This document shows, one piece after another, positions 26,953 to 45,768 of a DNA stretch of 64,000 bases. The notes under the pieces were generated by a model. It did not search any database, had not been told where the DNA came from, and saw nothing but the letters and a program-made list of their open reading frames with translations. Source of the DNA: a virus (lineage: Duplodnaviria > Heunggongvirae > Uroviricota > Caudoviricetes); IMG/VR virus record IMGVR_UViG_3300021399_004731. One strand, given 5' to 3'. Numbering within the stretch: the first letter of the stretch is position 1; every line of letters begins with the position of its first letter. Position numbers and translations under genes: made by a program.

Positions 26953-28056
26953 TTAGGCTACAGCAATCTTCATTGTGCTTCGTGCTAGCTGTCCGTTGAC
27001 CATGCCAGTCATGGTGATGGTTGTCACGCCAGCCTTTCTGGCAGTCACGTTGCCATTGCTGTCCACTGTTGCTACGCCGTCATCAGATGAGGTGAACTGC
27101 ACGTCCGTATAGGCATTGCCATGCTTGAGCATGTCTGCTACGCTCTTGCTCTGCCCAGTCCTGATGGCATCATCAGCTCCTGCATTGGCCTTTGCATTCT
27201 CCAATGCCTGTGCCTCTGCTTCAGCTTTTGCTTTCGCATCCGCCTCAGCCTTTGCCTTAGCTTGTGCCTCAGCTTCCTGCATAGCCTTGCGTGTTGCCTC
27301 AGCCTGTTTCATAGCTTCTTCCTGAGCTTTCTTGGCAGCCTCAGCCTGTGCCTGAGCGGCCTTTGCTTTTTCTTCCTCTTCCTTAGCTTTTGCCTGAGCT
27401 TCAGCAATAGCCTTCTGCTTAGCTTCTTCTTCCTGCTGTTTCTTTGCAGCATCTTCCTGAGCCTTCTTCTCTAGGCTGGCATCTGGAAAGAGTGAGCCAT
27501 CAATGGTCTCGTTGCCGTCATTCTCATAGTCATCTGCCAGTTGCCCTTTCATTTTCTTCTTGTCCTTCTTTTCTGATGTCTTGGAGCCTTTATCCTCACT
27601 TGCCAGTTTCTTTTCCAGCATGTAGGATTCCAGCTGTGACTGATGACCTAGCATGAAGGAGATGCCGTATCCAGCTCCTCCTATAAGAGCTGCAATAATC
27701 AGTCCGATGCCGATATTTCTGCCATATCTTGAGAAGAAGAGTCTTGCATTCATGGCAGCATCCTGTCCAGCACTTACTGGAGCACCGTGGCGAGGATGAT
27801 ATTCATCTTCGTCATCATCATCTTCGTCTTCTGCTTCGTCTGCTTTGTCTGCTTCGTATTCAGCTTCGGCATCATCTGCTGTATCTTCTACTTCGTATTC
27901 GTCAGTTTCAGCCTCTTCTGTTCCTGATTCTGCCTCTTCCATATCTGTATCTGCATCCATTTCTTCATCGTCATCATCGACAATGACATATTCTGCTGAT
28001 TCTGAGTCTGATTTTGAGTATTCTGTTTCTTGATAATCGTCTTTTCTCTTTTTCAA
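26953..28056 (-). CDS. Membrane protein: acidic N-terminus, one TM, Ala/Lys/Glu coiled coil, C-terminal Ig-like (Big_2) domain
   Basis: Probable TTG start at 28056 after AGGAGG. TM IGIGLIIAALIGGAGYGI; FTSSDDGVATVDSNGNVTARKAGVTTIT. Confidence 0.75.
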   Translation of the reverse strand: MKKRKDDYQETEYSKSDSESAEYVIVDDDDEEMDADTDMEEAESGTEEAETDEYEVEDTADDAEAEYEADKADEAEDEDDDDEDEYHPRHGAPVSAGQDAAMNARLFFSRYGRNIGIGLIIAALIGGAGYGISFMLGHQSQLESYMLEKKLASEDKGSKTSEKKDKKKMKGQLADDYENDGNETIDGSLFPDASLEKKAQEDAAKKQQEEEAKQKAIAEAQAKAKEEEEKAKAAQAQAEAAKKAQEEAMKQAEATRKAMQEAEAQAKAKAEADAKAKAEAEAQALENAKANAGADDAIRTGQSKSVADMLKHGNAYTDVQFTSSDDGVATVDSNGNVTARKAGVTTITMTGMVNGQLARSTMKIAVA

Positions 28057-28078
28057 AATGTTTCCCTCCTGAGTAATG

Positions 28079-28354
28079 CTAGATGAGTGCGGCTGACATG
28101 GCAATCAGTCCGAATGGATTGGATGGCAGCTGTCCTTTAGCAACGTAATAGAAATAGAACAGGAATGCCGCCAGTGCAATCAGCAGAATAGAGAAGACGA
28201 CCTGAGAAATAGCATAGTCGTTCTCCCTTCCTGTTGAAGAGTTCAGGGCTGTAAGTCCTCTGGAAAAGGCATACACACCAACTATGAATAAAAAGATAAT
28301 AAAGATGAGCAATGGCCATCCATCCAGGCCAACGCCCTTAAATCCAACTCCCAT
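28079..28354 (-). CDS. Small two-TM membrane protein
   Basis: 91 aa, two hydrophobic helices, AGGAGG RBS. Confidence 0.7.
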   Translation of the reverse strand: MGVGFKGVGLDGWPLLIFIIFLFIVGVYAFSRGLTALNSSTGRENDYAISQVVFSILLIALAAFLFYFYYVAKGQLPSNPFGLIAMSAALI

Positions 28355-28373
28355 ATAGAGTACCTCCTGTGCG

Positions 28374-28880
28374 TCAATTACTCTGACTCAGCGTTTCACG
28401 CAGATAGTCATGGATGACGATATCGACATCCTTGAGACGCTTTCTTTCCTTTTTGTCAATTTCAAAGAAGCTGATGTAGCCAGCAATGCGTCCGTTTTCC
28501 GTGTAGATGATGCATTGGTTGATGAACCGCCTGTCCTTGAGCTTGTCACTGATGCCTTCTACGTTATAGTAGATATCGCTCTGAATCAGCTTTGGTTCCT
28601 TGCCATAGCAGTCATCCCACGTTCGGCATTCCTTGAATATCTCCATGAATGGCGACAGGTCTACAGTCTTTTCCAGCTCTTCGATTGTGTCAATCCAGTC
28701 CATGTCAGACGTCCTGTCAAGAAAGTCCTTCTGGATTTCATAGAATTTCCTGCGTATGTAGAAAGTCCCGAATCTTTCAGGGACGGAATCACATCGCAGA
28801 AACACTTCTGCTATATACAAATCAGCGTCCTCCATTTTTCTTGTTGTTATATTTCTGCATGCGTTCCATGCATAATTCAT
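28374..28880 (-). CDS. Hypothetical protein
   Basis: 168-aa ORF in operon orientation with the downstream genes. Confidence 0.6.
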   Translation of the reverse strand: MNYAWNACRNITTRKMEDADLYIAEVFLRCDSVPERFGTFYIRRKFYEIQKDFLDRTSDMDWIDTIEELEKTVDLSPFMEIFKECRTWDDCYGKEPKLIQSDIYYNVEGISDKLKDRRFINQCIIYTENGRIAGYISFFEIDKKERKRLKDVDIVIHDYLRETLSQSN

Positions 28881-29031
28881 ATTATATCACAAAAATGCAC
28901 AAAAGGCGAATGATGGGAGGGTCAATTTTAAAAAATGATATGATTAATTATAGGTGTATTTTTTTAGGTGTGATTTCTGACGGCTTTTACTCGGCTGTCT
29001 GATTTAGTGAATTGCACAGAAAGGAGAAACT

Positions 29032-29187
29032 ATGAAAAATACAATTAAGGGCGGATATGACGCTTACCGTCACGTGCCTAATCCAGAGCATGTGGCAAAC
29101 TTCCTTCAAGGCAGCCGAAAGGTAAAGCCTAAAAAAGGAAAAGGCTCTTATTCACGTAAGAGCAAGCATAGAGGAAATGACTATTAA
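29032..29187 (+). CDS. arfA: ArfA-like alternative ribosome-rescue factor (51 aa)
   Basis: Not in ORF track. GAAAGGAG RBS; MKNTIKGGYDAYRHVPNPEHVANFLQGSRKVKPKKGKGSYSRKSKHRGNDY. KKGKGSYxRKxKH at residues 34-46 matches the ArfA signature. Promoter-like motif 28939-28952; terminator at about 29192-29216. Confidence 0.65.
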   Translation: MKNTIKGGYDAYRHVPNPEHVANFLQGSRKVKPKKGKGSYSRKSKHRGNDY

Positions 29188-29254
29188 AATAGGCATTCTT
29201 CTCTATGCCTTTTTTGTGCATTTTTTTAAAATAGATATGATTAAATATAGACGT

Positions 29255-29575
29255 TATTTAAGATTCCATATGAGAGCTTTTCCCAGAGGCAGTTACATGC
29301 CCCTGATGTAAGCTGAATTTATCCATATGGGTGAGATATATTTTATCTCACAGAAAGGAGAATTATTGTCAATCTTAATATGACGAACCAGATGATATGA
29401 TGACAGGAATGCTAGCTGTCTAGACGCTTGCAGATGTCATGCTGGGATATTGTTTATAATAGGATGCAGGTGTTCAGGTTACCCTATTCTCCGACCTGAA
29501 TGCTGAGCATTGTGCATATGTTGAATGCACGACTCCAACACCGTATCATGTGTTGGAGATTTTTTTGCAAAAATT
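29255..29575 (+). ncRNA. Candidate structured RNA (or decayed gene) bounded by the promoter motif and a terminator
   Basis: Motif 29236-29249; stems CCATATG/CATATGG, GTGAGAT/ATCTCAC, TTCAGGT/ACCTGAA; terminator CTCCAACAC/GTGTTGGAG + T7. No ORF longer than about 10 codons after the GAAAGGAG at 29353. Confidence 0.35.
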
Positions 29576-29604
29576 TCAAAAAAATATGATTAAATAATAT
29601 ATGT

Positions 29605-29906
29605 ATTTTGGATATATCATGGCAGGCAATGAAGGAAAGTCACATTTCCTACGTCATGCCTCTTATGTCGTGATGCTCGTAAAAATGTGCAATTAAGTCC
29701 AGAATAATGAAACCAGTGATGCCGTCAGTCAAGGAATGCCGATAACTAGGAATTGGATTTCTCTGACGCTGGGAAAGCTTTCACAGACACAATAGGAACG
29801 GGAATGCAGATTATTCTTTCTCCGTCTGCAATTCCTAAGTTCAGCAGGACCTTTATGTAATTAACCTGCACCACTACAGTAGCATCTGCTGTAGTGTTGT
29901 TTTTTT
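29605..29906 (+). ncRNA. Candidate ~300-nt structured ncRNA
   Basis: Motif 29585-29598. Nested stem ATCATGGCA/TGTCGTGAT enclosing AGGAAA/TTTCCT; AGGAATTG/CAATTCCT; GCAGG/CCTGC; 11-bp terminator 29872-29896 + T-run. Confidence 0.5.
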
Positions 29907-29941
29907 AATATAGAATCATTTGCATGGGGAGGACAAAAAAG

Positions 29942-30193
29942 ATGCAATATAATCTCGACTTTGCCAAGTACGTTGCCAGGCGTGCAGCCAGGGCATTTCC
30001 AGGCGTGCATGAGGCAGACATGGCATCCGTCATACTCTATGAAGACAGGGCAATTGTCATCAGAATCAATGGCATGGACGGCTATGTCAATTACACTCTG
30101 ACGTACAAGAAGACAGGACGTTCCGAATGTCACAGGACGCTTGATGGCATCTATACGGCTGTTGAAAGAGAATATGCAAAAGAGACCGCTTAA
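29942..30193 (+). CDS. Small hypothetical protein
   Basis: GGGAGG RBS before ATG 29942 (in frame with track ORF 29924..30193); terminator follows. Confidence 0.6.
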   Translation: MQYNLDFAKYVARRAARAFPGVHEADMASVILYEDRAIVIRINGMDGYVNYTLTYKKTGRSECHRTLDGIYTAVEREYAKETA

Positions 30194-30288
30194 GCTGAAA
30201 CAATCATCAGCTCTGGCGGTCTCTCTTTTTGTGCAAAAAAAGACTGACGACAAAATGTCATCAGTCATATAGCCAACATAATTAGAAT

Positions 30289-32691
30289 TTATTCAGTCAT
30301 GATTTTCTTGAGAATGCCTAACAGCTCTTCAGGAAGCTCATCAACGTCAGGCACGATACTATAAGCATCATAAATAAGAGGAATGTGCTCTGTATCGTCA
30401 CCGATACCTACGCCAATGGCTGAAATGTTCTTTTTTACCTTGAAGTAATTAATGAAGCCTTTCAAGTCATTCAACGCAGGCTGACCATAATAGTCATCAT
30501 CAGCAGGTGAACCGTCTGAGATGACAATCATGACAAGCTTCTCATCCTTCTTCGCATGCTTTGCTAAATCAATAGCTGCATGGAAGTAAGCAAGAGAGTC
30601 ACGGTTACCTCCGCTGGCTCTTTCCACCAGATTCAAGTTATCTCTATATTTTAAGTATCCATCGAATGGAATATATTTATAGAGATTACAATCATAATTT
30701 GGTGAATTGAAGCCATAGACAGCACATGGCACCTTGATTCTGCTACATGCCTGAGCAAGCAGCATTGAAGCTAAGGCAGCATCATACGCCTTCTGACCAT
30801 GCATTGAGCCAGACTGGTCAACAAGTACACAGATGCGGGCAGAAACTTTCTTCCCCTGTGTTACTTGTTTAAAGACACGACCATCTGTCTTCGCACGGAA
30901 GAGCTGAGGTGTGTTGATTTTACCACTCTTTTGTCCAAAGAGCTTTGTATCGTTTGCACGATACATCAACACTCTCTTTAGCTGATTAGCAAACTGTGCA
31001 GAACGGCGAGATATTTTCTGTATATCGCTATCCCTTACGCCAGCATATCTGCCGACATATTTTGCACATTCGTCAGGACTGAAAAACTGTAGTCCAACGC
31101 CATCGTGCATATGCGACAAACTGCCTGGCACTTTTGACGTGCCTTCGTAATTAGGAGAGTGTCCAGAACCATTGCTACCAAATATCTCCTTTTCAAGAGA
31201 TTTTTCAGCAGCCTTGTCTGCTTGTTTTTCAAGCGTCTTGACATCAGATTCAACAGCAGCAGCAGCTTTGATGGCTTCTGACTTGCCAATCTTCTTGACA
31301 TCTGACACGCTCTTTGAAGGCTTGCCTGCATGCTTATCTGATACAGCAGCAGTGTCACCTTCATTTCCTGCACTGTTGCCTGATTCAGACTGGCTAGCAC
31401 CATCACTACCTGATTCAGCACTGCTTGAATCAGACGCTTCATCAGCTCCAACAGAGCTTCCAGACTGACCAGCATCAGAACTGCTATCTGTGCCTTTTCC
31501 TGATTCAGACTGACTGCCGTCAGCATTATCAGAGCCATCGGCACCTGACTTGCTATCTGTACTATCCTGACTACCCTGAGCAGCTTTCTGAGCAGCTTTC
31601 TGAGCAGCTTCTTGAGCTGCTGCAGTTTCCTTCTTGGCATCATCTAATGCCTGCTGATTCTTTTCATCTAAATCGATGTTGAATTCAGAAGGTCTAGAAG
31701 CACCCTGGCCTCCAGCTTCCTTTTTATGAGAAGCTATTGACAATTCTGAAGCCATGTCATCCATCTGAGGCTGACCAGCAGTCTCAGTGTCACCAGCTTC
31801 AAGAGCCTTGATGAATCCGTTGAAAAATTCATCAGTCTTAACTGTAATTCTATCCTTAAGATATGTATTAAGAATAGCTTTTGCTGTGGCATAGACATCC
31901 CATGAATTTTCACATGAAAATCTTGCGTAATAGCAAAGCTGACGTAATTCATCAACCTTGTCATTCAGATTTTCATCTGCATCAAGATAAGGTGTCTCGA
32001 CTTCCTGGCGGTAGTCAATAACAGCAAGATGTCTGATATCTGCAATCAGACTGTGAATCCATTCTGATGAGTCATGACTCATGCTGGTGTTAGCACCTGT
32101 AACTTCCATTCTTGTGATAGAATCACGAGAGGCTACCACGCCTGCATAAGTCTGAGGCTTGTAGCTTGGACCAATGTTTTCAATCCAGGCGTCCTCAAGG
32201 GAGTTGTCAAGCTCCTTGAGGTAGTTTGCTTCTACATAATCATAGAGAGCTTTCTTTGCCTTTTCCTCTACAACTTTCTTTTCAGCTTCATTTTTACATT
32301 TTTGCCATTTCTTAGCCAGCTTTGGCATTTGTGCCTGGCCTTCAGCACCTTTCTTGCAGATTTCAACCATAGGGCCGAAATCTGTATAGAGAAGGTGAAA
32401 GGCTTCATGAGACATAACGCCTCTCAAACGAAGAATTGCGTCTTCCAATGAGACATCTTTCTTAAGGCATATTTCTTCAAGAACTGCCATGGCAACATCC
32501 ACATGGATATATTTTTCTTTATCATCCACGTGAGAATATGCTACTGGCTTATCCTCATTCACAACGTCAATTCTGACATCATGAATTTCTGGGAAAAGCA
32601 CGCCCTTCCCATATGCCGCAAATGGTCTATCCATTGTTGCTAATTTTTTTATTGCTTCATCAACAGTTATTACTTTCATTTTTTTTACCAA
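30289..32691 (-). CDS. VWA-domain protein with N-terminal HExxH region (CobT-like partner of a MoxR AAA+ ATPase)
   Basis: SHEAFH motif; Ser/Gly/Asp low-complexity linker; MIDAS DQSGS...ISDG in the C-terminal VWA domain. Confidence 0.85.
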   Translation of the reverse strand: MVKKMKVITVDEAIKKLATMDRPFAAYGKGVLFPEIHDVRIDVVNEDKPVAYSHVDDKEKYIHVDVAMAVLEEICLKKDVSLEDAILRLRGVMSHEAFHLLYTDFGPMVEICKKGAEGQAQMPKLAKKWQKCKNEAEKKVVEEKAKKALYDYVEANYLKELDNSLEDAWIENIGPSYKPQTYAGVVASRDSITRMEVTGANTSMSHDSSEWIHSLIADIRHLAVIDYRQEVETPYLDADENLNDKVDELRQLCYYARFSCENSWDVYATAKAILNTYLKDRITVKTDEFFNGFIKALEAGDTETAGQPQMDDMASELSIASHKKEAGGQGASRPSEFNIDLDEKNQQALDDAKKETAAAQEAAQKAAQKAAQGSQDSTDSKSGADGSDNADGSQSESGKGTDSSSDAGQSGSSVGADEASDSSSAESGSDGASQSESGNSAGNEGDTAAVSDKHAGKPSKSVSDVKKIGKSEAIKAAAAVESDVKTLEKQADKAAEKSLEKEIFGSNGSGHSPNYEGTSKVPGSLSHMHDGVGLQFFSPDECAKYVGRYAGVRDSDIQKISRRSAQFANQLKRVLMYRANDTKLFGQKSGKINTPQLFRAKTDGRVFKQVTQGKKVSARICVLVDQSGSMHGQKAYDAALASMLLAQACSRIKVPCAVYGFNSPNYDCNLYKYIPFDGYLKYRDNLNLVERASGGNRDSLAYFHAAIDLAKHAKKDEKLVMIVISDGSPADDDYYGQPALNDLKGFINYFKVKKNISAIGVGIGDDTEHIPLIYDAYSIVPDVDELPEELLGILKKIMTE

Positions 32692-34756: not shown

Positions 34757-35950
34757 ATGGCAAGATTTAATAAGGAATTCAAGGCGGCATGTAGCCTTGA
34801 AAATTATGAAAATTTCAAGAGCATAGAGAACATTAATACTTTATGTCCAGAAGGAGCAGACTGGAGATGGAGATGCTTTAAAAAGGTTCTCATTCAGGGA
34901 CAAGACAATGAAGTTCCTGGAAATGATGCCATCACTGTTGGTGAAGACATTTATGCAAAAGTGACAGGAGACTTGCTCAAGATATGGTCCCCTGAAATCA
35001 TTGAATTTGAAGATGATTCAATATGCATATTTACATACATGGAGAGGGTTGAAGAAGTTATCATGACAGACGGATTGTCATTTGAGCATGTAACAAGCTT
35101 TATGCAGACTTTTGCTGATAGCCAGAAACTATTGCATGTCAAGATGAAGGCAGACTGCAAGAATATTTATGATTTTAACAGTATGTTTTCTTGGTGCTCT
35201 AATCTTGAAAATGCAGAGCTTGATTTTTCCAATACAGGAAGTGTAAAGGAAATGAGGAAAACGTTCTTAAAATGCTATAAGCTTACAAAAATTACATGCG
35301 AAAACTGGGATGTGTCGCATGTAAAAAGCATGAAAAGCATGTTTGAGGAGTGTCAAAACTTGAAAAATATTCCTATTCAAGAATGGAACACAAGCAGTCT
35401 TGAAAATATGAGTCGTATGTTTAAATGCTGTCTGGCCTTAAAAAAGAATCCCACTGAAAAATGGGATGTATCAAAAGTCAGAGATGTTAAATATCTGTTC
35501 TCTGAATGTTGGAACTTGAAGGAAATAGACCTTTCAAGTTGGGACACATCAAGACTTGAGGACACATCCTATATGTTCTATGTTTGCAAGGAAATGAAAA
35601 AAGTCAACCTAGACAACTGGGACGGCTTTAATATCAAGAATGTCTCATCTATGTTTAAAGAATGCAAAAGCCTTGAAGATGTCTCAATGAAATGGAAAAG
35701 AGAGGCATTTATCGAAAACGCAGAATATGCTTTTTCAGGATGCACAAGCCTGAAAATAATTGATATCAGTTCTTTTGATTTCTCCAGATGTAGAAATACA
35801 GTGAGAATGTTTGAAGAATGTGAAGAATTGTTCTGGGTGGAAAATGCATGGAATCTCAATCCATCGCTTTGGAACACAAAAGGCATGTTTATGATGTGCT
35901 CAAGCCTCATGTTTCCTGATATTTCAGCATGGAAGCAAAAGGACCTTTGA
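34757..35950 (+). CDS. DUF285/BspA-type LRR protein 1 (no export signal)
   Basis: 25-26-aa WDVSxVxxMxxMFxxCxxL repeats; starts MARF; no hydrophobic signal or anchor. Confidence 0.9.
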   Translation: MARFNKEFKAACSLENYENFKSIENINTLCPEGADWRWRCFKKVLIQGQDNEVPGNDAITVGEDIYAKVTGDLLKIWSPEIIEFEDDSICIFTYMERVEEVIMTDGLSFEHVTSFMQTFADSQKLLHVKMKADCKNIYDFNSMFSWCSNLENAELDFSNTGSVKEMRKTFLKCYKLTKITCENWDVSHVKSMKSMFEECQNLKNIPIQEWNTSSLENMSRMFKCCLALKKNPTEKWDVSKVRDVKYLFSECWNLKEIDLSSWDTSRLEDTSYMFYVCKEMKKVNLDNWDGFNIKNVSSMFKECKSLEDVSMKWKREAFIENAEYAFSGCTSLKIIDISSFDFSRCRNTVRMFEECEELFWVENAWNLNPSLWNTKGMFMMCSSLMFPDISAWKQKDL

Positions 35951-36106
35951 TTTCTAGTGATGATTTTATTGCAATGTTTCTTATCTTGCTGGGAGGCACC
36001 TATTAAGGTGTCTTTCTTTTTGCTTATTTTTGTCGTAGAAGATATTATGATAAAATATAAATGCCATATAGTAGTCCTGATGAGGACAGAAAGGAGAATA
36101 TTATAT

Positions 36107-37330
36107 ATGAGCAAAATAGTAAAGTTTAATGATTTCTTTAAAAGGAATTTTTGTCTTGATGATTATTCATCAGTCAAGAACATAGAACTGATAAGCCCGT
36201 TCTTTCCAAAAGGCATAAGAGGAAAAAATTCCTTCAAGAAAATCATCATTGCAGGATGTGATAATGACGTTGCTGATGATAAGTCAATTATTGTTGGCGA
36301 AGACATCTACGCCAGCATCAGAAAAGGCAACTTGAAAATCTGGTCTCCGTATCAGATTGAATTTGATGATGAAACAATAGGAATGTTTTATCAGATGATG
36401 AGGATTAAAGAGGTCATTATGAATGATGCTATTGTCTTCAATTTGACCAGCTTCGTGGATACGTTTGCAAACAGCAAGAGACTGAAATATGTAGAAATGC
36501 ATGCTGACTGCACGAAAGCGAACAGCTTTCAGAGAATGTTCTTTAATGACAACGCCCTGGAAAATGTTATACTTGATTTCAAGAATACGGGGAATGTCAG
36601 AGATATGTCTCTCATGTTCAAGGGATGCATCAGCCTAAAGCATATCGGTGACATAGAGACATGGGATGCATCTCATGTTACAAAAACTGATGAGATGTTC
36701 AATGAATGTACCAGCCTGAAAAGCATTCCAATACAAGACTGGAAAACCAGCAGTTTAAGGAGCATGAGGTATATGTTTTCATCCTGCTACAGACTTGAAG
36801 AGAATCCAACAGAAAAATGGGATACTTCAAGCCTCGTGGATGCATCAGGGGTATTTGAACTATGCACCAGTCTGACATCAATCAACCTGTCTGGCTGGAA
36901 CACAGAAAGACTTGAGACAGCTGCTGACATGTTTGATAGCTGCAGTTTTCTCAGATATGTCAATTTAGACAACTGGGACGGTTTTAACATCATAAACATG
37001 GATTTCATGTTTAGACATTGCACTCAGCTTGAAGATGTCTCAATGAAGAATTGGCAAAATAAAGCCAGCGTTGAGAGGGCTGAAGGAGCATTCATGTCAT
37101 GTGAAAACCTTACGGTGCTTGACTTATCTAATGTCAGCTTAGAAAAATGCAAAAATATGGCAAATATGTTCACATACTGCAAAAATCTTTTGTGGATTGA
37201 AAACGAGTGGAACATTTATCCAGGTATTGAGCTTTCAGTAAGCATGTTTTATGATTGTGTCAGTCTGGTATTGCCTGATACATCTTCCTGGCCTTGTCAT
37301 AACATGTTCGATGCTAGCTTTTATATTTGA
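36107..37330 (+). CDS. DUF285/BspA-type LRR protein 2
   Basis: True start at 36107 (MSKIVKF, GAAAGGAG RBS); closest to member 1. Confidence 0.9.
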   Translation: MSKIVKFNDFFKRNFCLDDYSSVKNIELISPFFPKGIRGKNSFKKIIIAGCDNDVADDKSIIVGEDIYASIRKGNLKIWSPYQIEFDDETIGMFYQMMRIKEVIMNDAIVFNLTSFVDTFANSKRLKYVEMHADCTKANSFQRMFFNDNALENVILDFKNTGNVRDMSLMFKGCISLKHIGDIETWDASHVTKTDEMFNECTSLKSIPIQDWKTSSLRSMRYMFSSCYRLEENPTEKWDTSSLVDASGVFELCTSLTSINLSGWNTERLETAADMFDSCSFLRYVNLDNWDGFNIINMDFMFRHCTQLEDVSMKNWQNKASVERAEGAFMSCENLTVLDLSNVSLEKCKNMANMFTYCKNLLWIENEWNIYPGIELSVSMFYDCVSLVLPDTSSWPCHNMFDASFYI

Positions 37331-37337
37331 CAGCTGT

Positions 37338-37370
37338 AAAGCCCCCCTACTTTAGTTGTATGGAGTTCAA
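37338..37370 (+). mobile_element. Solo IS200/IS605 right-end remnant
   Basis: AAAGCCCCCCTACTTTAGTTGTATGGAGTTCAA aligns with the tnpB element right end AGAATCCCACGACTTTAGTCGTGTGGAGTGTCAA. Confidence 0.55.
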
Positions 37371-37488
37371 TGAGTCACCAGTTTTGGTGTCTCATTTTTT
37401 GTTTATAAACCACTAATATGATAAAATATAAATGCTATATGAATAAGGTCTATAGATAAATATCTACAGACACAGAAAGGAGAATATT

Positions 37489-38406
37489 ATGAAAATAGCA
37501 AGATTTAGTAAATCATTAGGCGACATGCTCAAAACATATCACATGTTATCTAATCCAGGAGACATGTATAGGAAAGCTGAAAATGACTTACTGGAAGCAT
37601 TTGTCCCAAAAAAAGAATGGGGACTTTCATGTACCTACATCAGCATTTATTGCATGATGCCCTTTGTCCAGCCAGATGATGCAAAGACGACAGTCAGGAT
37701 GGATGATGGTAAATACCCTATCTACGCTATAGTCAGAAGCGGCGGATTGGAAGTTGTGGCTGAGGCAGACTATATCGAATGGACGGACACATTACAATCC
37801 ATTCGTATGCTTTCATATTCAACAGGCATCAAGACAATGGAAATAGATGACATTGATTTTAGCAAATGCACTAGCTTTTCATACATGTTTGCTCATAATC
37901 GGGATGTTGAGGAAATTCATTTCCATAACATTAAAGGCATGGAAAATGTAAGAAATACATATTCTATGTTTTCGTGCTGCTGCAAGCTTGCATCACTCAA
38001 TATGAGCTGTTTTCAAGGCTTGCATCCAGAATATGCAGAAAGCATGTTTAGTGCCTGCTATAGTCTCAAGAGAATTGATGACATATTCCAGGTTGATGCT
38101 AAATGCTATAACACGAGTGCAATGTTCAGGGACTGCCTTAGTCTTGAAGAGCTTGACCTGAATGGCTGGAATGTTTCAGGCGTTTCAAGCATGGCATTGA
38201 TGTTCTATTCATGCAATAGCCTGAAAGCACTTGATGTCCATCAGTTTGACCCAAGTCATTGTAAGGATATGAGACTCATGTTCGCACACTGTAGCAGCCT
38301 GATGATACTTGATACATCGGGATGGAAGATTAGCAAAGAATGCAATACTGAAGACATAATAGAGGAATGCGAAAGCTTGGTATTTGTTGATGAAATACTG
38401 CAATAG
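37489..38406 (+). CDS. DUF285/BspA-type LRR protein 3 (short, fewer repeats)
   Basis: MKIARF start; CMMPFVQPDDAKTTVR shared with member 7; 305 aa. Confidence 0.9.
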   Translation: MKIARFSKSLGDMLKTYHMLSNPGDMYRKAENDLLEAFVPKKEWGLSCTYISIYCMMPFVQPDDAKTTVRMDDGKYPIYAIVRSGGLEVVAEADYIEWTDTLQSIRMLSYSTGIKTMEIDDIDFSKCTSFSYMFAHNRDVEEIHFHNIKGMENVRNTYSMFSCCCKLASLNMSCFQGLHPEYAESMFSACYSLKRIDDIFQVDAKCYNTSAMFRDCLSLEELDLNGWNVSGVSSMALMFYSCNSLKALDVHQFDPSHCKDMRLMFAHCSSLMILDTSGWKISKECNTEDIIEECESLVFVDEILQ

Positions 38407-38420
38407 AAAGAGAGGATAAT

Positions 38421-39716
38421 ATGAAAGTAGCAAAATTTTGTAACGATTTAGGAAAAATCTTAGACAAAAAGGAGACAGAAATGCACTGGAAGCCAAATGA
38501 CGGCTTTAGGATAAGAAACCGTCTTTTGCCAGCCTTTCTGCCAGCAGAGAGAATACCTGACATCAAGACAATCAATGTTAGATGCATATCCGATTATACG
38601 CCTGACAGCAAGGCAGTACGTCTTGATAATGGTTATCTGCCTATCTATGTTGAGATAACAGATGATACAGTCAGCATCATCAGTACTGCCGACTACATAG
38701 AATGGTGCGAAGAGGCAGGAAATTTCTTTTATAGGCTGGAACATGTTGAGCATATCAGCATGCATGACATAGACTTTAAAGATGCCCAGAAAGTCAATTC
38801 TCTTTTCAACAGCGACAAGTCATTAAAGGATGTAGATTTCAAGAATCTTATCAACACTGAAGACATCTACAGCATGACCTACATGTTTGCTGGGTGCCAG
38901 AGTATTGAAGAAATCGATATGTCTGCATTCAAGTCAGAGTGGCAGCATGTTGCGAGGGCCTTTATTGGATGCCTTTCATTGAAGACTGTCAAGGGCATGC
39001 ATATCACTCATGCATGTTTCAGCCTGTCTGCAATGTTCAGAAATTGCGAATCATTGCAAGAAATTGAAGGCATTTCCAATTGGGATGTTTCCCATGTAAG
39101 GGAAATGAACAATATGTTCACCTATTGCAAAGGTCTTAAGGCTCTTGACCTGTCTGGATGGAACACAGAAAGACTCGAAGAAGTGATAAAGATGTTTTAC
39201 GAGTGCTTTGACTTAAAGGAAGTCAAAGGCATCAAAGACTGGAATGTCAGCAGCCTTAAGTTTACAGGAGGCATGTTTGGACAATGTGTTTCGCTCGAAG
39301 CTATAGACTTGAGCGGCTGGAACACCAAGTCACTTAAGAAGACAGACAGCATGTTTTACGGATGCGAACAAGTCAAATCCATTAATTTGAATGGATGGAA
39401 AACATCAAGAGTCACATCAATGTCTTGCATGTTTGAAAACTGCAAGTCTATGGAGGAAATTGACATCAGCACATTCAGTACGGGAGCTGTATCAGACATG
39501 AGTAGCATGTTCAAAGGCTGTGAATCACTAAAGGCATTAGACCTGTCAAGATTCAAGCTCAAGAAATGCATGTACATAAATGAAATGTTTGCTGGCTGTC
39601 GAAGCCTCAATATTCTTGACCTGACAGGATGGGAACTGGACAGATGCTGTCAAAAGGGCTACGTTCTTAACAACTGTGACAGTCTTGTATTCGTTGATAT
39701 ATCCGTCTTTCATTAA
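38421..39716 (+). CDS. DUF285/BspA-type LRR protein 4
   Basis: MKVAKF start, LPIYV..ADYIEW N-domain, LRR repeats, C-terminal cap. Confidence 0.9.
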   Translation: MKVAKFCNDLGKILDKKETEMHWKPNDGFRIRNRLLPAFLPAERIPDIKTINVRCISDYTPDSKAVRLDNGYLPIYVEITDDTVSIISTADYIEWCEEAGNFFYRLEHVEHISMHDIDFKDAQKVNSLFNSDKSLKDVDFKNLINTEDIYSMTYMFAGCQSIEEIDMSAFKSEWQHVARAFIGCLSLKTVKGMHITHACFSLSAMFRNCESLQEIEGISNWDVSHVREMNNMFTYCKGLKALDLSGWNTERLEEVIKMFYECFDLKEVKGIKDWNVSSLKFTGGMFGQCVSLEAIDLSGWNTKSLKKTDSMFYGCEQVKSINLNGWKTSRVTSMSCMFENCKSMEEIDISTFSTGAVSDMSSMFKGCESLKALDLSRFKLKKCMYINEMFAGCRSLNILDLTGWELDRCCQKGYVLNNCDSLVFVDISVFH

Positions 39717-39783
39717 TAATATTTCTTATCTTGCTGATAAAGACACCTATTTAGGTGCCTTTATTTTTGCCTTATAAGCATAT

Positions 39784-39946
39784 TATGATAAAATATATAT
39801 GCTATTTAGGATGCAAAAACCTTATCAGCTTGAATCTTTCTGGATGGAAACTTAGTCCTGATACGGACGCTTATCAATGTCTCGATGGATGCGAGAATCT
39901 CGTGTTCGTGGACATGAGCGTTTTTGATGGATTGATGAGACTGTGA
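39784..39946 (+). pseudogene. Deleted LRR gene relic: promoter joined directly to the last ~46 codons
   Basis: Promoter motif 39784-39797, then LGCKNLISLNLSGWKLSPDTDAYQCLDGCENLVFVDMSVFDGLMRL*, which closely matches the C-terminus and terminator of member 8. Confidence 0.8.
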
Positions 39947-40072
39947 GATATTGCTATTGAATGGATGGGCATTTTGTCCGTCCTCTTTTTTTATTTTTTG
40001 CATACATCCCTAATATGATAAAATATATATGCTATATTTATGTCCCATTGAGGACGGAGAGGAGAATAAAAT

Positions 40073-41611
40073 ATGAAAATAGCAAAATTTAACAAAGATA
40101 TCTTAGACATAATGAATGAAAAAAGCAGAAAAAATTCTGGGGAGTCTCTTAAAAGATTCAATAACGGCCTCATCCAGGCATTTGCAAGTGAAGATGATGC
40201 CAAGACGATTGAAATCAAATGTCAGGCGCCTGCCGACATTCCAGATGATGCGGAGACATTAAGGATAGATGACTATGCATCATATCCTATCTATGTCATC
40301 GCAACAAAGGAAAAAGTTTCAGTAGTAGCTGAAGCTGACAAGATAGAATGGAGGGATGACCTCAGCCAGTTACACCTTCTGGACAGAGCACGAAAAGTAA
40401 AACACATCATAGTGCATGATGTGGATTTCAGCAAGTGTAAAAGCCTGTCCGAAATCTTTTACTCCGATAGGGGTGTAATTGATTTTGATTTTCAAAATCT
40501 GTCAGGCTTTGAAAACGTGGAAGAGGCAGAAAGCATGTTTTCAATGTGCGAGAATATAAGAACAATAGACATGGCAGAATTCAGAGGGATGTTGCCAAAA
40601 TGCACAACCAACATGTTTAGCTGTTGCTGCTATCTTACAGAAATCAAAAATATCTTGCAGATAAGTAGCAATTGCGTGGAAACAGGAGGAATGTTTTCAC
40701 ATTGCTACAAAATAAGGACACTGGACCTGAATGATTGGGACATGTCCAATGTCAGATGCATGAATGGCATGTTCGAGCAATGCAATAATCTAAAGGAATT
40801 ACACATTGAAGACTGGAACACAAAAAATATGGTGGACGCTTCCTACATGTTCTCTCAATGTGGCATTGAAAAAATGCCTGTTGAAAGATGGGATGTTTCT
40901 AATCTTTTGAATGCCAAAGCTATGTTCTGCTATTGTGATAACATGATTTCGCTGGATTTGTCTCAGTGGAACACAGAAAACTTACAATATACTGATAGTA
41001 TGTTCGGTGGATGTGAAAATCTTGAACATGTGAATCTCAAGAACTGGAAGACATCAAAGGTCTTGAACGTGTCGGGCATGTTCGAGAGGTGCAAGAATCT
41101 AAAGGAATTGCACATTGAAGGCTGGGATGTTTCTAGTCTTAGGGATGCCAGATACATGTTCTGCAATTGCAAGAGCATGGGTTCACTGGATTTGTTTCAG
41201 TGGAATACCAAGGAATTGCGATACACCGACAATATGTTCAGTGGATGTGAAAACCTTGAATATCTGAGTCTTCTTGGCTGGAGAACGTCAAAGACCTTGA
41301 GCATGTTTGGCATGTTCAGAAGCTGTAAGAAACTGAAGGAATTAGATTTGTCATCTTTCAGAACATCAGCTGTGTCTAACATGGGCTACATGTTTAGTGA
41401 TTGCTGTGAGCTTAAAACACTGGACTTGCATCAGTTTGCTCTAGGCAAATGTATAAACATGGGGAGCATGTTTGAGGATTGCAACAGTCTCATGGTGCTG
41501 GATACATCAGGCTGGAAGATTCGTAACGATTGTCATACACGCGACATGCTTTTCGGATGCACGAGTCTTGTATATATTGATGAAAATGTATACAAAGCAC
41601 ATTCCATTTAA
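40073..41611 (+). CDS. DUF285/BspA-type LRR protein 5 (longest; internal 78-aa duplication)
   Basis: MKIAKF start; duplicated three-repeat block starting at 40889 and 41123. Confidence 0.9.
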   Translation: MKIAKFNKDILDIMNEKSRKNSGESLKRFNNGLIQAFASEDDAKTIEIKCQAPADIPDDAETLRIDDYASYPIYVIATKEKVSVVAEADKIEWRDDLSQLHLLDRARKVKHIIVHDVDFSKCKSLSEIFYSDRGVIDFDFQNLSGFENVEEAESMFSMCENIRTIDMAEFRGMLPKCTTNMFSCCCYLTEIKNILQISSNCVETGGMFSHCYKIRTLDLNDWDMSNVRCMNGMFEQCNNLKELHIEDWNTKNMVDASYMFSQCGIEKMPVERWDVSNLLNAKAMFCYCDNMISLDLSQWNTENLQYTDSMFGGCENLEHVNLKNWKTSKVLNVSGMFERCKNLKELHIEGWDVSSLRDARYMFCNCKSMGSLDLFQWNTKELRYTDNMFSGCENLEYLSLLGWRTSKTLSMFGMFRSCKKLKELDLSSFRTSAVSNMGYMFSDCCELKTLDLHQFALGKCINMGSMFEDCNSLMVLDTSGWKIRNDCHTRDMLFGCTSLVYIDENVYKAHSI

Positions 41612-41666
41612 TAGAAAAAAGAAAAGAAATGGGGCGTGCCACAAGGCACGCCATTGGTAAAGAAAA

Positions 41667-42959
41667 ATGAAAATAGCAAGATTTGCAGAAAATCAAAACG
41701 ACATTCTTCGGAAAAATCAGAAAAGTGTCAATATCCTTTTGGATTATGACAATGAAAATCCGTTGATGTCGGCTTTTGTTGAGGATAGAAAATGGTATCT
41801 GATAAAGCGCATTCATGTAAGATGCCAGAAAGGCTATATTCCATCCCCAGAAAGCATCAGAATGGATGATGGTAAATATCCTATCTATGTTGAGACTACA
41901 AAGGATAGCCTCAACATTATAGGAGACGCTGACTATATCGAATGGTCTGGAAAGCAGAATCTGTTTTTCCAGAATATCAAAAAAGGTGTGGAAGACATCA
42001 TTTTTGAGGACGTTTCTCTTTCTGGAGGGTTAATTGAATGTATGTTCTATAGAGACGAGTTTATAAAAAGCGTCAAAATGAAAAATATCATCAATCTAGA
42101 TGCAATAAATAGCACAAGAATGATGTTCTTTTGCTGCTACTCGTTAGAACATATCGAAATGCCAGATTTCAAAGATATGCCTAATCTACAAAACGTGGGA
42201 TACATGTTTGAGAATTGCGAAAATTTGAAAGAAATTGATGGCCTCCCTGTCATCACAAGCCAATGCTTAAACATGAAGAATATGTTTTATAAGTGTCAGG
42301 CAATAACGAGTCTTGATTTGTCAGACTGGGATGTCTCTAATGTCAAATTCATGCAAAACATGTTTAGAGAATGCACTCATCTTGAATCCATCAAGACAGG
42401 AGACTGGCACTGTGAACATGTCCTTGACATGACTTCTATGTTTGAAAACTGTGAAAAACTGAAAGACATCGATGATGTCGGAAAATGGCATGTAAGGGAC
42501 ATTAGAAATACGACAGAAATGCTAGCAGGCTGCCGAAGTCTGAAACATATTGATTTGTCTGGATGGTCTACAAAAGGCCTGAAAACAACAGAGTCCATGT
42601 TTTACGACTGCATCAGCATAGAGAGCATTAACCTGCATAGCTGGATAACAACCAGCGTCAATAATATGCAACTCATGTTCGCTAGGTGTCGCATGCTGAA
42701 GGAGCTTGACATCAGCACATTCAGAACATCAGCTGTTTCTAATATGGCTCACATGTTCAAGGACTGTGAATCCATCCAGTCATTGGATGTATCCAATTTC
42801 TCAGTAGGCAAAGTCAGATATATGTATGGCATGTTTAAAGGCTGTCAAAGTCTTATCTGGCTGAATATATCAGATTGGAAAATCCGAAACGACTGTAACA
42901 CGAATGGCATGTTTGAGAGGTGCGTGCATCTGGCATATCTTGATGGAGATATCTTTTAA
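41667..42959 (+). CDS. DUF285/BspA-type LRR protein 6
   Basis: MKIARF start; hairpin leader at 41633-41652; closest to member 8. Confidence 0.9.
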   Translation: MKIARFAENQNDILRKNQKSVNILLDYDNENPLMSAFVEDRKWYLIKRIHVRCQKGYIPSPESIRMDDGKYPIYVETTKDSLNIIGDADYIEWSGKQNLFFQNIKKGVEDIIFEDVSLSGGLIECMFYRDEFIKSVKMKNIINLDAINSTRMMFFCCYSLEHIEMPDFKDMPNLQNVGYMFENCENLKEIDGLPVITSQCLNMKNMFYKCQAITSLDLSDWDVSNVKFMQNMFRECTHLESIKTGDWHCEHVLDMTSMFENCEKLKDIDDVGKWHVRDIRNTTEMLAGCRSLKHIDLSGWSTKGLKTTESMFYDCISIESINLHSWITTSVNNMQLMFARCRMLKELDISTFRTSAVSNMAHMFKDCESIQSLDVSNFSVGKVRYMYGMFKGCQSLIWLNISDWKIRNDCNTNGMFERCVHLAYLDGDIF

Positions 42960-43084
42960 ATGAAATATTTGCTTGCTTATGGAGGATGATTTCCATCCTC
43001 TTTTTCTTTGTCTAAGACTTAATATGATAAAATATACATGCCATATAAATAGTGCTGCTTAGCACGGAGAGGAGAATGATATAT

Positions 43085-44407
43085 ATGAGCAAAATAGCAA
43101 AATTCAATGAAAGCCTTGGAGAAATGCTGAGGGTATATTGTGCGGCGTTGAATCCATATGAAGTGAATAGAAGTGTAAATGGACTGCTGAAAGCATTTAT
43201 CCAAAAAAAAGAATGGGCTTCATACACCTACATAAACGTAAGATGCATGATGCCTTTTGTCCAGCCTGATGATGCCAAGACGACAGTCAGACTAGATGAC
43301 GGGAAGTCATACCCTATCTATGCTGTTGTCAGAAGCGACGGCATAGAAATCATAGGCGAAGCTGACTATATTGAATGGACGGACGAATTACTATCCATTC
43401 ATATGCTGTCAGAAGCAACTTACGTGAAGTTAATGGAAATATCAGACATTGATTTTAGTCAATGCACTTATTTGTCAAACATGTTTTGTCAAGACGGAAA
43501 GGTAGAAAGGATAACGTTTAAAAACCTTATAGGGTTGGAAAGCAATATAAGATGGACAGCATCTATGTTTAGTGGATGCGCCAATCTGATAGAGCTTGAC
43601 ATGGAATGCTTTAGGAACCTGCGTCCTTTCATAACGATGGGCATGTTCTATGGGTGCAAGAATATGAGAACTATTGAAAATATGTTTTCAATAGATGAAA
43701 GATGCATAGACACTTCCAGCATGTTTTGTAACTGTTACAGACTTGAGCAGCTCGACCTGAACAGCTGGGACGTGTCGCATGTAAGCGAAATGGACAACAT
43801 GTTCCTTAAGTGCAAAGGACTGAAGACCTTGCATATTAGCAAGTGGAATACTGTAGGTTTGGAAACTACTCAATACATGTTTAGAGAATGTCGGAGTCTG
43901 AGAAAGGCAGAAGTTGCAGATTGGGACGTTTCTAATCTTGAGGATACCTATGGGATGTTTTCACTTTGTGAAAACCTCACATCTCTTGACCTTTCAAAGT
44001 GGGATACAAGAAAAGTCGGAACGATGGGTTACATGTTTTACCAGTGCAAAAACCTGGCGTGTCTTAATCTGCATGGATGGAGAACCGCCAATGTGGACAA
44101 CATGGAATGCATGTTCAAGGGATGTGCTAGTCTAAATGAACTAGACCTATCAACATTCAGAACATCGTCTGTCATTACTATGAAAGAGATGTTCTATGGA
44201 TGCAGAAGCCTGAAGGCACTCGATGTCCATCAGTTTGCCTTTGGTCATTGCAGGGATATGAGATGTATGTTCGAGTACTGCAGAGACCTGATGGTACTGG
44301 ATACATCAGGATGGAAGCTCAGCAAGGAGTGCAAAGCTAATAAAGCCAACATCATAGCGGGCTGCCAAAGCCTTGTGCTTGCTGATATTGCTTTGTTGAA
44401 ATCATAA
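43085..44407 (+). CDS. DUF285/BspA-type LRR protein 7
   Basis: True start at 43085 (MSKIAKF, GGAGAGGAG RBS); promoter motif 43023-43036. Confidence 0.9.
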   Translation: MSKIAKFNESLGEMLRVYCAALNPYEVNRSVNGLLKAFIQKKEWASYTYINVRCMMPFVQPDDAKTTVRLDDGKSYPIYAVVRSDGIEIIGEADYIEWTDELLSIHMLSEATYVKLMEISDIDFSQCTYLSNMFCQDGKVERITFKNLIGLESNIRWTASMFSGCANLIELDMECFRNLRPFITMGMFYGCKNMRTIENMFSIDERCIDTSSMFCNCYRLEQLDLNSWDVSHVSEMDNMFLKCKGLKTLHISKWNTVGLETTQYMFRECRSLRKAEVADWDVSNLEDTYGMFSLCENLTSLDLSKWDTRKVGTMGYMFYQCKNLACLNLHGWRTANVDNMECMFKGCASLNELDLSTFRTSSVITMKEMFYGCRSLKALDVHQFAFGHCRDMRCMFEYCRDLMVLDTSGWKLSKECKANKANIIAGCQSLVLADIALLKS

Positions 44408-44448
44408 AGAAACAAAAAAAGAAAGGAAGTGTGCCCTATGGCACGCCA

Positions 44449-45768
44449 TTGGTAAAGAAAATGAGAATAGCAAAATTTTCTGAAGAATTAATAAATATCA
44501 TGGAAGATTCTCAAAAGAAGCTAAACGGCGGATATGGTTTCTATAATGAAAATCTTCTTCTAAGTTCGTTTGTAGAAGTCGGGAAATGGGGTGATATCAA
44601 ATCCATTAGAATATTTTGTGAAGATGGCTTTGAACCATCTGGAAGATGGATGAGGGTGGATGATGGTGCATCATATCCCATCTATGTTGATGTGTTAAGT
44701 GACAGAATTCAGATAGTCGCTGATGCTGACTATATTGAATGGTCTGACAAATGCTATTTCTTAAGTTCTCTAAAGATGAGTGTGTATCATATATCCATAA
44801 AAAATGTATCGTTTAAGAATATCAGCAATCTCAATTGCATGTTCTATGATGATAAAGCTGTTGAGAATATTGAATTCCTTGACATCATTCATCTTGATAA
44901 CATCAAAGAATGCAGGCAGATGTTTCTGGCCTGTCATGGACTTAAGACAATCAGCATGCCTGATTTTAGGAATCTGCCATCTCTGGATGATGCCAGTGCA
45001 ATGTTTCGTGAATGCCAAAATCTTAAGAGCATTGATGGCCTGCCAGTCATTACAGACAGATGCACAATGCTGGAGTGCATGTTCGATGACTGTGAGAGTC
45101 TGACAAATCTTGACCTGTCAGGCTGGGACGTATCCAGTGTCAAGAGCATGGCCTTTATGTTCTGCGACTGCGGTAAGCTTTCATCACTGAACCTATCAGG
45201 ATGGAATACGAGCAGTATGGAATCAGCTGATTCCGTGTTCAGAGATTGTGTAGAATTAAACACAATTGATGTTGAAGGCTGGAATACAGCATGCCTGAAA
45301 AATGCAAGCCATATGTTTATGGGATGCTCAAAACTGGAACGGCTTGACCTCTCAAGGTGGAACACAAGGTCATTAAAAAGTGCAAAAGATATGTTTGCAC
45401 TCTGTATGAATATGCAGGAAATTAACCTGCATGGATGGATGACATCAAATATCAATAACATGGGATACATGTTTTTTGGTTGCGAGAACTTAAAAACGCT
45501 TGATATCAGTACCTTCAGAACATCAGCTGTATCAAATATGAACAGCATGTTCATGAACTGCGAGTCTCTAAAAAGCGTTGATGTGTCGCACTTTTCTATG
45601 GGCAAGTGCAGATATATAAGCAGCATGTTTGAACGATGCAAAAGCCTGACATTTATTGATGTATCTGGATGGAAGCTTCGCCGTGACATTGACGCTTATC
45701 GATGCCTCAACGGATGTGAGAATCTCGTGTTCGTGGACATGAGTGTCTTTAATGGATTGAGAATGTGA
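44449..45768 (+). CDS. DUF285/BspA-type LRR protein 8
   Basis: Start is TTG 44449 or ATG 44461 (MRIAKF); GAAAGG + hairpin leader at 44421-44446. Confidence 0.9.
   Translation: MVKKMRIAKFSEELINIMEDSQKKLNGGYGFYNENLLLSSFVEVGKWGDIKSIRIFCEDGFEPSGRWMRVDDGASYPIYVDVLSDRIQIVADADYIEWSDKCYFLSSLKMSVYHISIKNVSFKNISNLNCMFYDDKAVENIEFLDIIHLDNIKECRQMFLACHGLKTISMPDFRNLPSLDDASAMFRECQNLKSIDGLPVITDRCTMLECMFDDCESLTNLDLSGWDVSSVKSMAFMFCDCGKLSSLNLSGWNTSSMESADSVFRDCVELNTIDVEGWNTACLKNASHMFMGCSKLERLDLSRWNTRSLKSAKDMFALCMNMQEINLHGWMTSNINNMGYMFFGCENLKTLDISTFRTSAVSNMNSMFMNCESLKSVDVSHFSMGKCRYISSMFERCKSLTFIDVSGWKLRRDIDAYRCLNGCENLVFVDMSVFNGLRM

Follow-up and report, generated by a model that had tools for sequence, protein, structure and literature searches.

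The window, meaning the whole stretch of 64,000 nucleotides that was analysed, contains a short open reading frame (ORF) of 51 codons on the plus strand. The first-pass annotation had described this ORF as equipped with its own promoter motif, ribosome-binding site and terminator, and all of these were found around positions 29032-29187. The locus is a predicted self-contained transcription unit composed of an element promoter, a Shine-Dalgarno (SD) sequence, the 51-codon ORF and an intrinsic terminator. Its features are arranged as follows.

28937-28953, plus strand: element-type promoter motif GATATGATTAATTATAG, with the start codon 79 nt downstream
28979-28999, plus strand: possible small 5'-UTR hairpin (GACGGC...GCTGTC), read from the sequence
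29020-29026, plus strand: SD sequence AAAGGAG, 5 nt 5' of the ATG
29032-29187, plus strand: ArfA-family ORF of 51 aa, with the stop codon TAA at 29185-29187
29131-29169, plus strand: codons for KKGKGSYSRKSKH (residues 34-46), corresponding by match to the ArfA decoding-centre/mRNA-channel segment
29166-29208, plus strand: terminator hairpin, from the minimum-energy fold and allele comparison
29166-29184, 29185-29188 and 29189-29208, plus strand: 5' arm (coding), apical loop and 3' arm of this hairpin
29210-29215, plus strand: intrinsic-terminator T-run, from the sequence, a terminator scan and the fold
29234-29250, plus strand: second copy of the promoter motif, just 3' of the terminator, opening the next transcription unit and lying outside the gene

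The promoter motif is strongly over-represented. With up to three mismatches allowed, GATATGATTAATTATAG has 15 matches in the window where 0.6 would be expected, all of them between genes. Its strict form TATGATWWAWTATA occurs 14 times, is present too in the syntenic relatives L001 and L037, and is absent from the unrelated loci carrying family members. The copy at 28937-28953 is invariant in 11 relatives, and the SD sequence AAAGGAG is kept in all relatives compared. The 5'-UTR hairpin is a weak candidate for a real structure; compared with the window, L037 carries a G-to-A substitution there that turns a G-U pair into an A-U pair. The ArfA-like ORF itself is present in a single copy in the window. 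Downstream of the second promoter motif, a near-copy of the SD context, CACAGAAAGGAGAA (29349-29362), precedes only a 5-codon ORF running from TTG 29366 to TGA 29383. The unit 29234-29383 may form a leader for the ORF-poor stretch that reaches ~29900.

The window further encodes DnaE, ERF, an SSB-like protein, two MoxR-type ATPases together with a VWA protein, a BspA/DUF285 LRR array (34757-45768), a 3083-aa repeat protein and an IS605-type TnpB. Ten neighbouring proteins gave no match in PHROGs, and Pfam and PHROGs searches of the neighbour genes returned few or no matches, with no phage structural or conjugation genes among them. Scans of the window with ARAGORN and Rfam were negative for tRNAs, tmRNA and known RNA families, and megablast of positions 28000-31000 against PLSDB plasmids and INPHARED phages gave no match. 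The gene and the gene order around it recur in syntenic contigs of up to 233 kb. The carrier is a large plasmid-like mobile element, as the first-pass annotation had proposed a mobile element.

The best tblastn matches of DnaE have 31-35% identity and are spread over many phyla, which does not resolve the host. The best PLSDB matches of TnpB come from Finegoldia and Bacillus (42-47%), a weak pointer to Firmicutes. On indirect evidence, namely these TnpB matches, the SD usage and the Spo0A-positive genomes with sister genes described below, the host is probably a member of the Firmicutes. Other short relatives of the ORF adjoin NlpC/P60, RRXRR-HNH, LPD1 and DUF3945 genes, in surroundings that resemble mobile elements. 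On two contigs unrelated to each other, the short ArfA-like gene is followed directly, or within ~2 kb downstream, by a gene for a BspA-type LRR_5 protein (L043:8158-8679 and L050:9324-13427).

Conservation and family assignment of the ORF

The very short length of the ORF, together with the lack of a match to the peptide in NCBIfam, would be expected of a chance ORF, or of an untranslated sequence conserved only for RNA or DNA signals. Such an origin is highly improbable in view of the substitution pattern between the window allele and the L036 allele, which gave pN 0.109 against pS 0.794 (pN/pS ~0.14). Synonymous sites are saturated between the two, and the changes include codon-family switches such as Ser AGC/TCA and Arg CGT/AGA. 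In addition, the ORF has a strong SD sequence, its product scores above the Pfam cut-off, and its relatives number in the hundreds. By these measures, the 51-codon ORF is a real gene under purifying selection.

Identical or near-identical ORFs have been gene-called in other metagenome assemblies, with 98% and 85% protein identity, and represent two alleles. Compared with the 85% allele, the window allele is 75% identical in the DNA of the ORF and 94% in the upstream flank (28880-29330 compared with L036-L039). This contrast would reflect either strong regulatory constraint on the flanks or cassette replacement of the small gene. An apparent enrichment of TAG stops in the short subfamily (four of five lineages; L036-L039, L040, L041 and L043) is at most marginal and unconvincing, because TAG also ends ~30% of the long ORFs in the window. 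The window allele, unlike these four lineages, ends with TAA.

ArfA is a back-up factor that frees stalled ribosomes. Its KGKGS loop, Tyr and RK-KH segment bind the decoding centre and the mRNA channel, and residues Q27-E30 of the E. coli protein add a β-strand to RF2. E. coli ArfA (YhdL) is represented by PF03889 and by PDB entries 5MDV, 5MGP, 5H5U and 5U4I. On the ribosome, only 46-48 residues of ArfA are ordered (PMC8012679). Residues 1-20 of the E. coli protein, including A18, activate RF2, and A18 is needed for this activation (PMC8012679).

A search of Pfam with the peptide, as the first-pass annotation had proposed, returned ArfA as the only family (PF03889; 28.8 bits, E 8.5e-7, curated cut-off 25.5 bits), with the alignment covering residues 28-46 only. 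Moreover, the family profile matched ArfA chains when compared with all PDB chains (E 5e-10). The segment KKGKGSYSRKSKH at residues 34-46 corresponds to KKGKGSYMRKGKH at residues 33-45 of E. coli ArfA (numbering from the 72-aa PDB chain 5h5u_3), with 11 of 13 residues identical and an offset of one residue. The motif thus lies, as had been claimed, at nearly the same distance from the N-terminus as in E. coli ArfA. Nine of the 13 positions (K34, K35, G36, K37, G38, S39, Y40, R42 and K45) are invariant in the clade alignment A4.

Profile-profile comparison carries the similarity further towards the N-terminus. Using hhalign, residues 21-49 were aligned with gammaproteobacterial ArfA from chromosomal loci (probability 97.8%, E 9e-13), and within residues 21-33, L25, R29 and V31 of the L..R.V segment before the motif coincide with L, R and V positions that are conserved in the Vibrio-type ArfA profile. 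The N-terminal 25 residues alone show no similarity to gammaproteobacterial ArfA N-termini (hhalign probability 0.15%, E 0.4), and in an ungapped alignment the position equivalent to E. coli A18 is a variable residue. The matches thus extend over residues 28-46 (Pfam) and 21-49 (profile-profile) only, and leave out the N-terminal third. By sequence, the gene is a genuine ArfA-family member whose putative ribosome-binding two thirds are ArfA-like, and the part equivalent to the RF2-activating region of E. coli ArfA is not, its ~20 N-terminal residues being unrelated to those of the E. coli protein.

B. subtilis BrfA (YqkK; PDB 6SZS) has no detectable sequence relationship with the window family, as the PDB profile search at E up to 1 returned ArfA chains only and the BrfA chain of 6SZS was not among them. 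In the literature (PMC8012679), BrfA is described as a short rescue factor that depends on RF2, has a KH motif, is encoded by an ORF with an internal terminator and belongs to a Firmicutes host, and in these traits it resembles the ArfA-like system. Unlike the product of the window gene, it is made from a non-stop mRNA.

Relatives and chromosomal long forms

An exhaustive profile search of 1.84 billion representative proteins identified 13 relatives at E up to 0.001. A word-seeded profile search identified 540, most of them metagenomic ORFs without a name, 34-80 aa long and belonging to several N-terminal types. The type of the window peptide is characterised by [KR]H-x-P-N-[PE]-x-H-[VM] and FLQG. 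From IKGGY through KH it aligns without gaps with a sister type, IKGGY..K..NIHEHLQ.IN.G.G, in which alignment H20 is nearly invariant and G27 invariant. Short members of the sister type end at an aromatic residue 4-6 positions after KH, and long members (64-77 aa) run on into a hydrophobic tail, for example DSNDTSCFYAFL.

The N-terminal 20 residues of the window peptide align without gaps with longer, chromosomal ArfA-like genes. Three of these long forms, P0010, P0023 and P0024 (L052-L054), show full-length homology to the window peptide (profile E 1e-15 to 5e-17), and their hairpins, like that of the window gene, start at the KH codons. Unlike the window gene, they encode 68-72 aa including a hydrophobic tail, contain the hairpin and U-run inside the ORF, and lie among housekeeping-type neighbours. 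Particularly, P0024 is flanked by genes for an ABC transporter, Crp and TetR regulators and a glyoxalase, an ordinary chromosomal setting. In the long forms of 68-72 aa (L052-L054, and also L047 and L048), a hairpin of up to 24 perfect bp begins at the KH codons. The U-run is located inside the ORF or at its very end, which is the classical arfA/brfA non-stop design.

The 3.6-Mb genome of P0024 and two close relatives (G003-G005) each contain a strong copy of the long form. Spo0A was found in all three, and among the control genomes in B. subtilis only; tmRNA and RF2 are present in the long-form genomes. Long forms are rare, occurring in 3 of the 401 genomes sampled from their phylum, with the centre genome G003 counted. 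A genome scan with a 7-row alignment showed only gammaproteobacterial arfA among the matches listed (the first 600 pattern matches). According to reviews and a survey of >15,000 genomes, ArfA is confined to beta/gamma-proteobacteria and BrfA, treated as an independent invention, to the B. subtilis group (PMC8012679, PMC11633108). The window gene, located on a mobile element and outside the beta/gamma-proteobacteria, looks like a member of a Firmicutes-associated ArfA clade outside this published distribution. The locus and its relatives point to an ArfA-related clade with a self-limiting layout in the chromosomes of spore-forming Firmicutes.

The shared N-terminus bears on what the peptide would do on the ribosome. 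Only the putative ribosome-binding two thirds of the window peptide resemble ArfA, the RF2-activating N-terminus of the proteobacterial proteins is not conserved in it, and ArfA(A18T) demonstrates that binding without activation is possible (PMC8012679). These features would suit a ribosome-binding mimic lacking release activity, which occupies the empty mRNA channel or the A site of ribosomes, whether stalled or free, and thereby competes with tmRNA-SmpB or a host rescue factor, or modulates translation. We consider such a mimic unlikely. The N-terminus is conserved in the clade and is common to the self-limiting chromosomal long forms in genomes that have tmRNA and RF2, which is more readily explained by a working rescue factor adapted to a different release factor than by an inhibitor.

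Stop codon and terminator hairpin

The hairpin at 29166-29208 comprises ~18 bp, with a minimum free energy of -23.4 kcal/mol and a z of -3.85. Its 5' arm consists of codons K45-Y51, so that it starts at the KH codons, as the hairpin of E. coli arfA follows its KH codons. The apical loop UAAA opens with the stop codon TAA, and the U-run follows the 3' arm. The first-pass annotation had placed the stop upstream of the terminator; the fold and the allele comparison instead locate it in the apical loop of the terminator hairpin itself. The 85% allele forms the same hairpin shape from another sequence, with TAG at its apex. Three base pairs are changed on both sides between the two alleles with pairing kept, that is, by compensatory changes.

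Past the stop, both alleles have another 12-13 open codons in frame, most of them for hydrophobic residues, so a single stop codon is all that parts the ORF from an arfA-like tail. The hydrophobic tail that is reached through the hairpin in ArfA is not present in the window ORF, where TAA lies in the loop and the E. coli ORF would continue. Truncated E. coli ArfA of 53-55 aa is fully active (PMC3989591), and the window peptide, with 51 aa and KH at 45-46, is close to this form in size and exceeds the 46-48 residues seen ordered on the ribosome. The description of the gene as 'pre-truncated' is accordingly a fair one, because the peptide has no hydrophobic tail and the chromosomal relatives keep both the tail and the non-stop layout. 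It is plausible that synthesis of the 51-aa peptide is largely free of tmRNA control.

The stop-in-hairpin layout is also found in chromosomes. Among 12 folded chromosomal arfA genes from Vibrio, Pseudoalteromonas and allied genera, eight have the stop within the hairpin, so the layout alone is no proof of lost tmRNA control. The gene in the window could still act through a non-stop mRNA: an RNase III-type cut in the 5' arm of the hairpin would remove the stop loop, most rounds of translation would finish on a message that lacks a stop and is subject to tmRNA control, and the stop in the loop would serve only as a safeguard for uncut transcripts. The hairpin of E. coli arfA is an RNase III target (PMC3989591, PMC8012679), the window hairpin has precisely the starting point of those in the chromosomal long forms, the KH codons, its pairing is preserved by the compensatory changes, and gammaproteobacterial arfA genes have the same stop-in-loop arrangement. 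This regulated alternative is nevertheless improbable in our assessment. With ~18 bp, the stem falls short of the perfect 24-bp stems of the long forms and has more interruptions, and an uncut mRNA would in any case give a peptide of active length without the destabilising tail. Moreover, short relatives conserve the residues that the 5' arm encodes, as far as the terminal Tyr. The majority of short relatives stop at the conserved aromatic residue 4-6 positions after KH, or within 2-3 residues beyond it, which suggests that selection has kept the complete C-terminus as encoded. In addition, the short relatives L041 and L043 have no hairpin at all, and the next gene begins 1-7 nt past their stops.

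The chromosomal genes with the stop in the hairpin (L008, L009, L011, L016-L018, L020 and L022) come from Vibrio, Pseudoalteromonas, Psychromonas and an Alteromonadaceae MAG. Their ORFs end in SKAA (e.g. EPYSKAA), LKAA, QIAA, LMAA or SKVA, which resemble the end of the ssrA tag. In sister species (L007, L010 and L012), arfA reads through the hairpin into a hydrophobic tail.

Proposed action and related peptides

The best explanation of the locus, which we hold to be about as likely as not, is a tail-less ArfA-family rescue peptide made by normal termination and largely outside tmRNA control. In ribosomes that have stalled at the 3' end of a truncated mRNA, the C-terminal two thirds of the peptide (KKGKGSY-RK-KH and the terminal aromatic residue) would bind the empty decoding centre and the mRNA entry channel. 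Residues ~21-31 and the clade-specific N-terminus would recruit a class-I release factor, most likely RF2, which would then hydrolyse the peptidyl-tRNA. In the chromosomal members of the clade, the hairpin and U-run lie within the ORF, so their mRNA would have no stop codon; these members would be self-limiting, with their product under tmRNA control. The window gene has its stop in the apical loop, so that translation of the intact transcript would terminate normally and give a peptide of active length without the tail, whose synthesis should largely escape tmRNA.

Ribosome binding, release-factor recruitment, tmRNA independence and a benefit to the element are all steps that we infer. RF2 as the partner is a tentative proposal, because the N-terminal third has no similarity to proteobacterial ArfA and the A18-equivalent position is variable. 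A complex prediction of the peptide family with B. subtilis RF2 gave a score of 0.00, which, coming without controls, is evidence neither way.

A broader scenario is put forward tentatively. The clade would be an unrecognised Firmicutes ArfA clade whose chromosomal copies are under tmRNA control, and elements and phages would have repeatedly taken up ArfA-type peptides, removing the control by a stop in or before the hairpin. An element of this kind would then supply tmRNA-independent rescue. If so, such rescue could keep translation going when host defences, or the very long genes of the element, break many messages. Tail-less ArfA-type versions with ordinary stops do occur on large mobile elements, and activity of these versions would mean that mobile elements manipulate ribosome rescue. 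The pair of a long chromosomal form and a short element form would in that case offer a naturally occurring test of why the synthesis of ArfA is coupled to tmRNA. The peptide also offers a defined small molecule for asking whether ArfA-type factors work with Firmicutes release factors.

Literature searches turned up no account of an ArfA gene on a phage or mobile element. Phage-type ArfA-like mini-peptides match PHROG 37108 and PHROG 2701. The mini-peptides from IMG/VR (L027-L035) resemble the window peptide in having 36-55 aa, the KKGKGSY motif and, in most cases, an ordinary stop soon after the motif, and in some of them the stop lies inside or at the end of a hairpin. Unlike the window peptide, they have different N-terminal types, and several are located in the tRNA arrays of large phages.

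Two of these short ArfA-like ORFs, L027:5962-6129 and L029:5977-6117, are encoded on viral contigs of 121 kb and 96 kb, within tRNA arrays that contain 28 and 22 genes per 12 kb, respectively. The arrays include suppressor-type tRNAs with the anticodons UCA (L027) and CUA (L029). Another viral ArfA-like ORF, L031:5977-6123, contains an intrinsic terminator (GCAGGAGGAA...TTCCTCCTG and a T-run) inside the ORF and before its stop, which is the classical non-stop layout on a phage contig.
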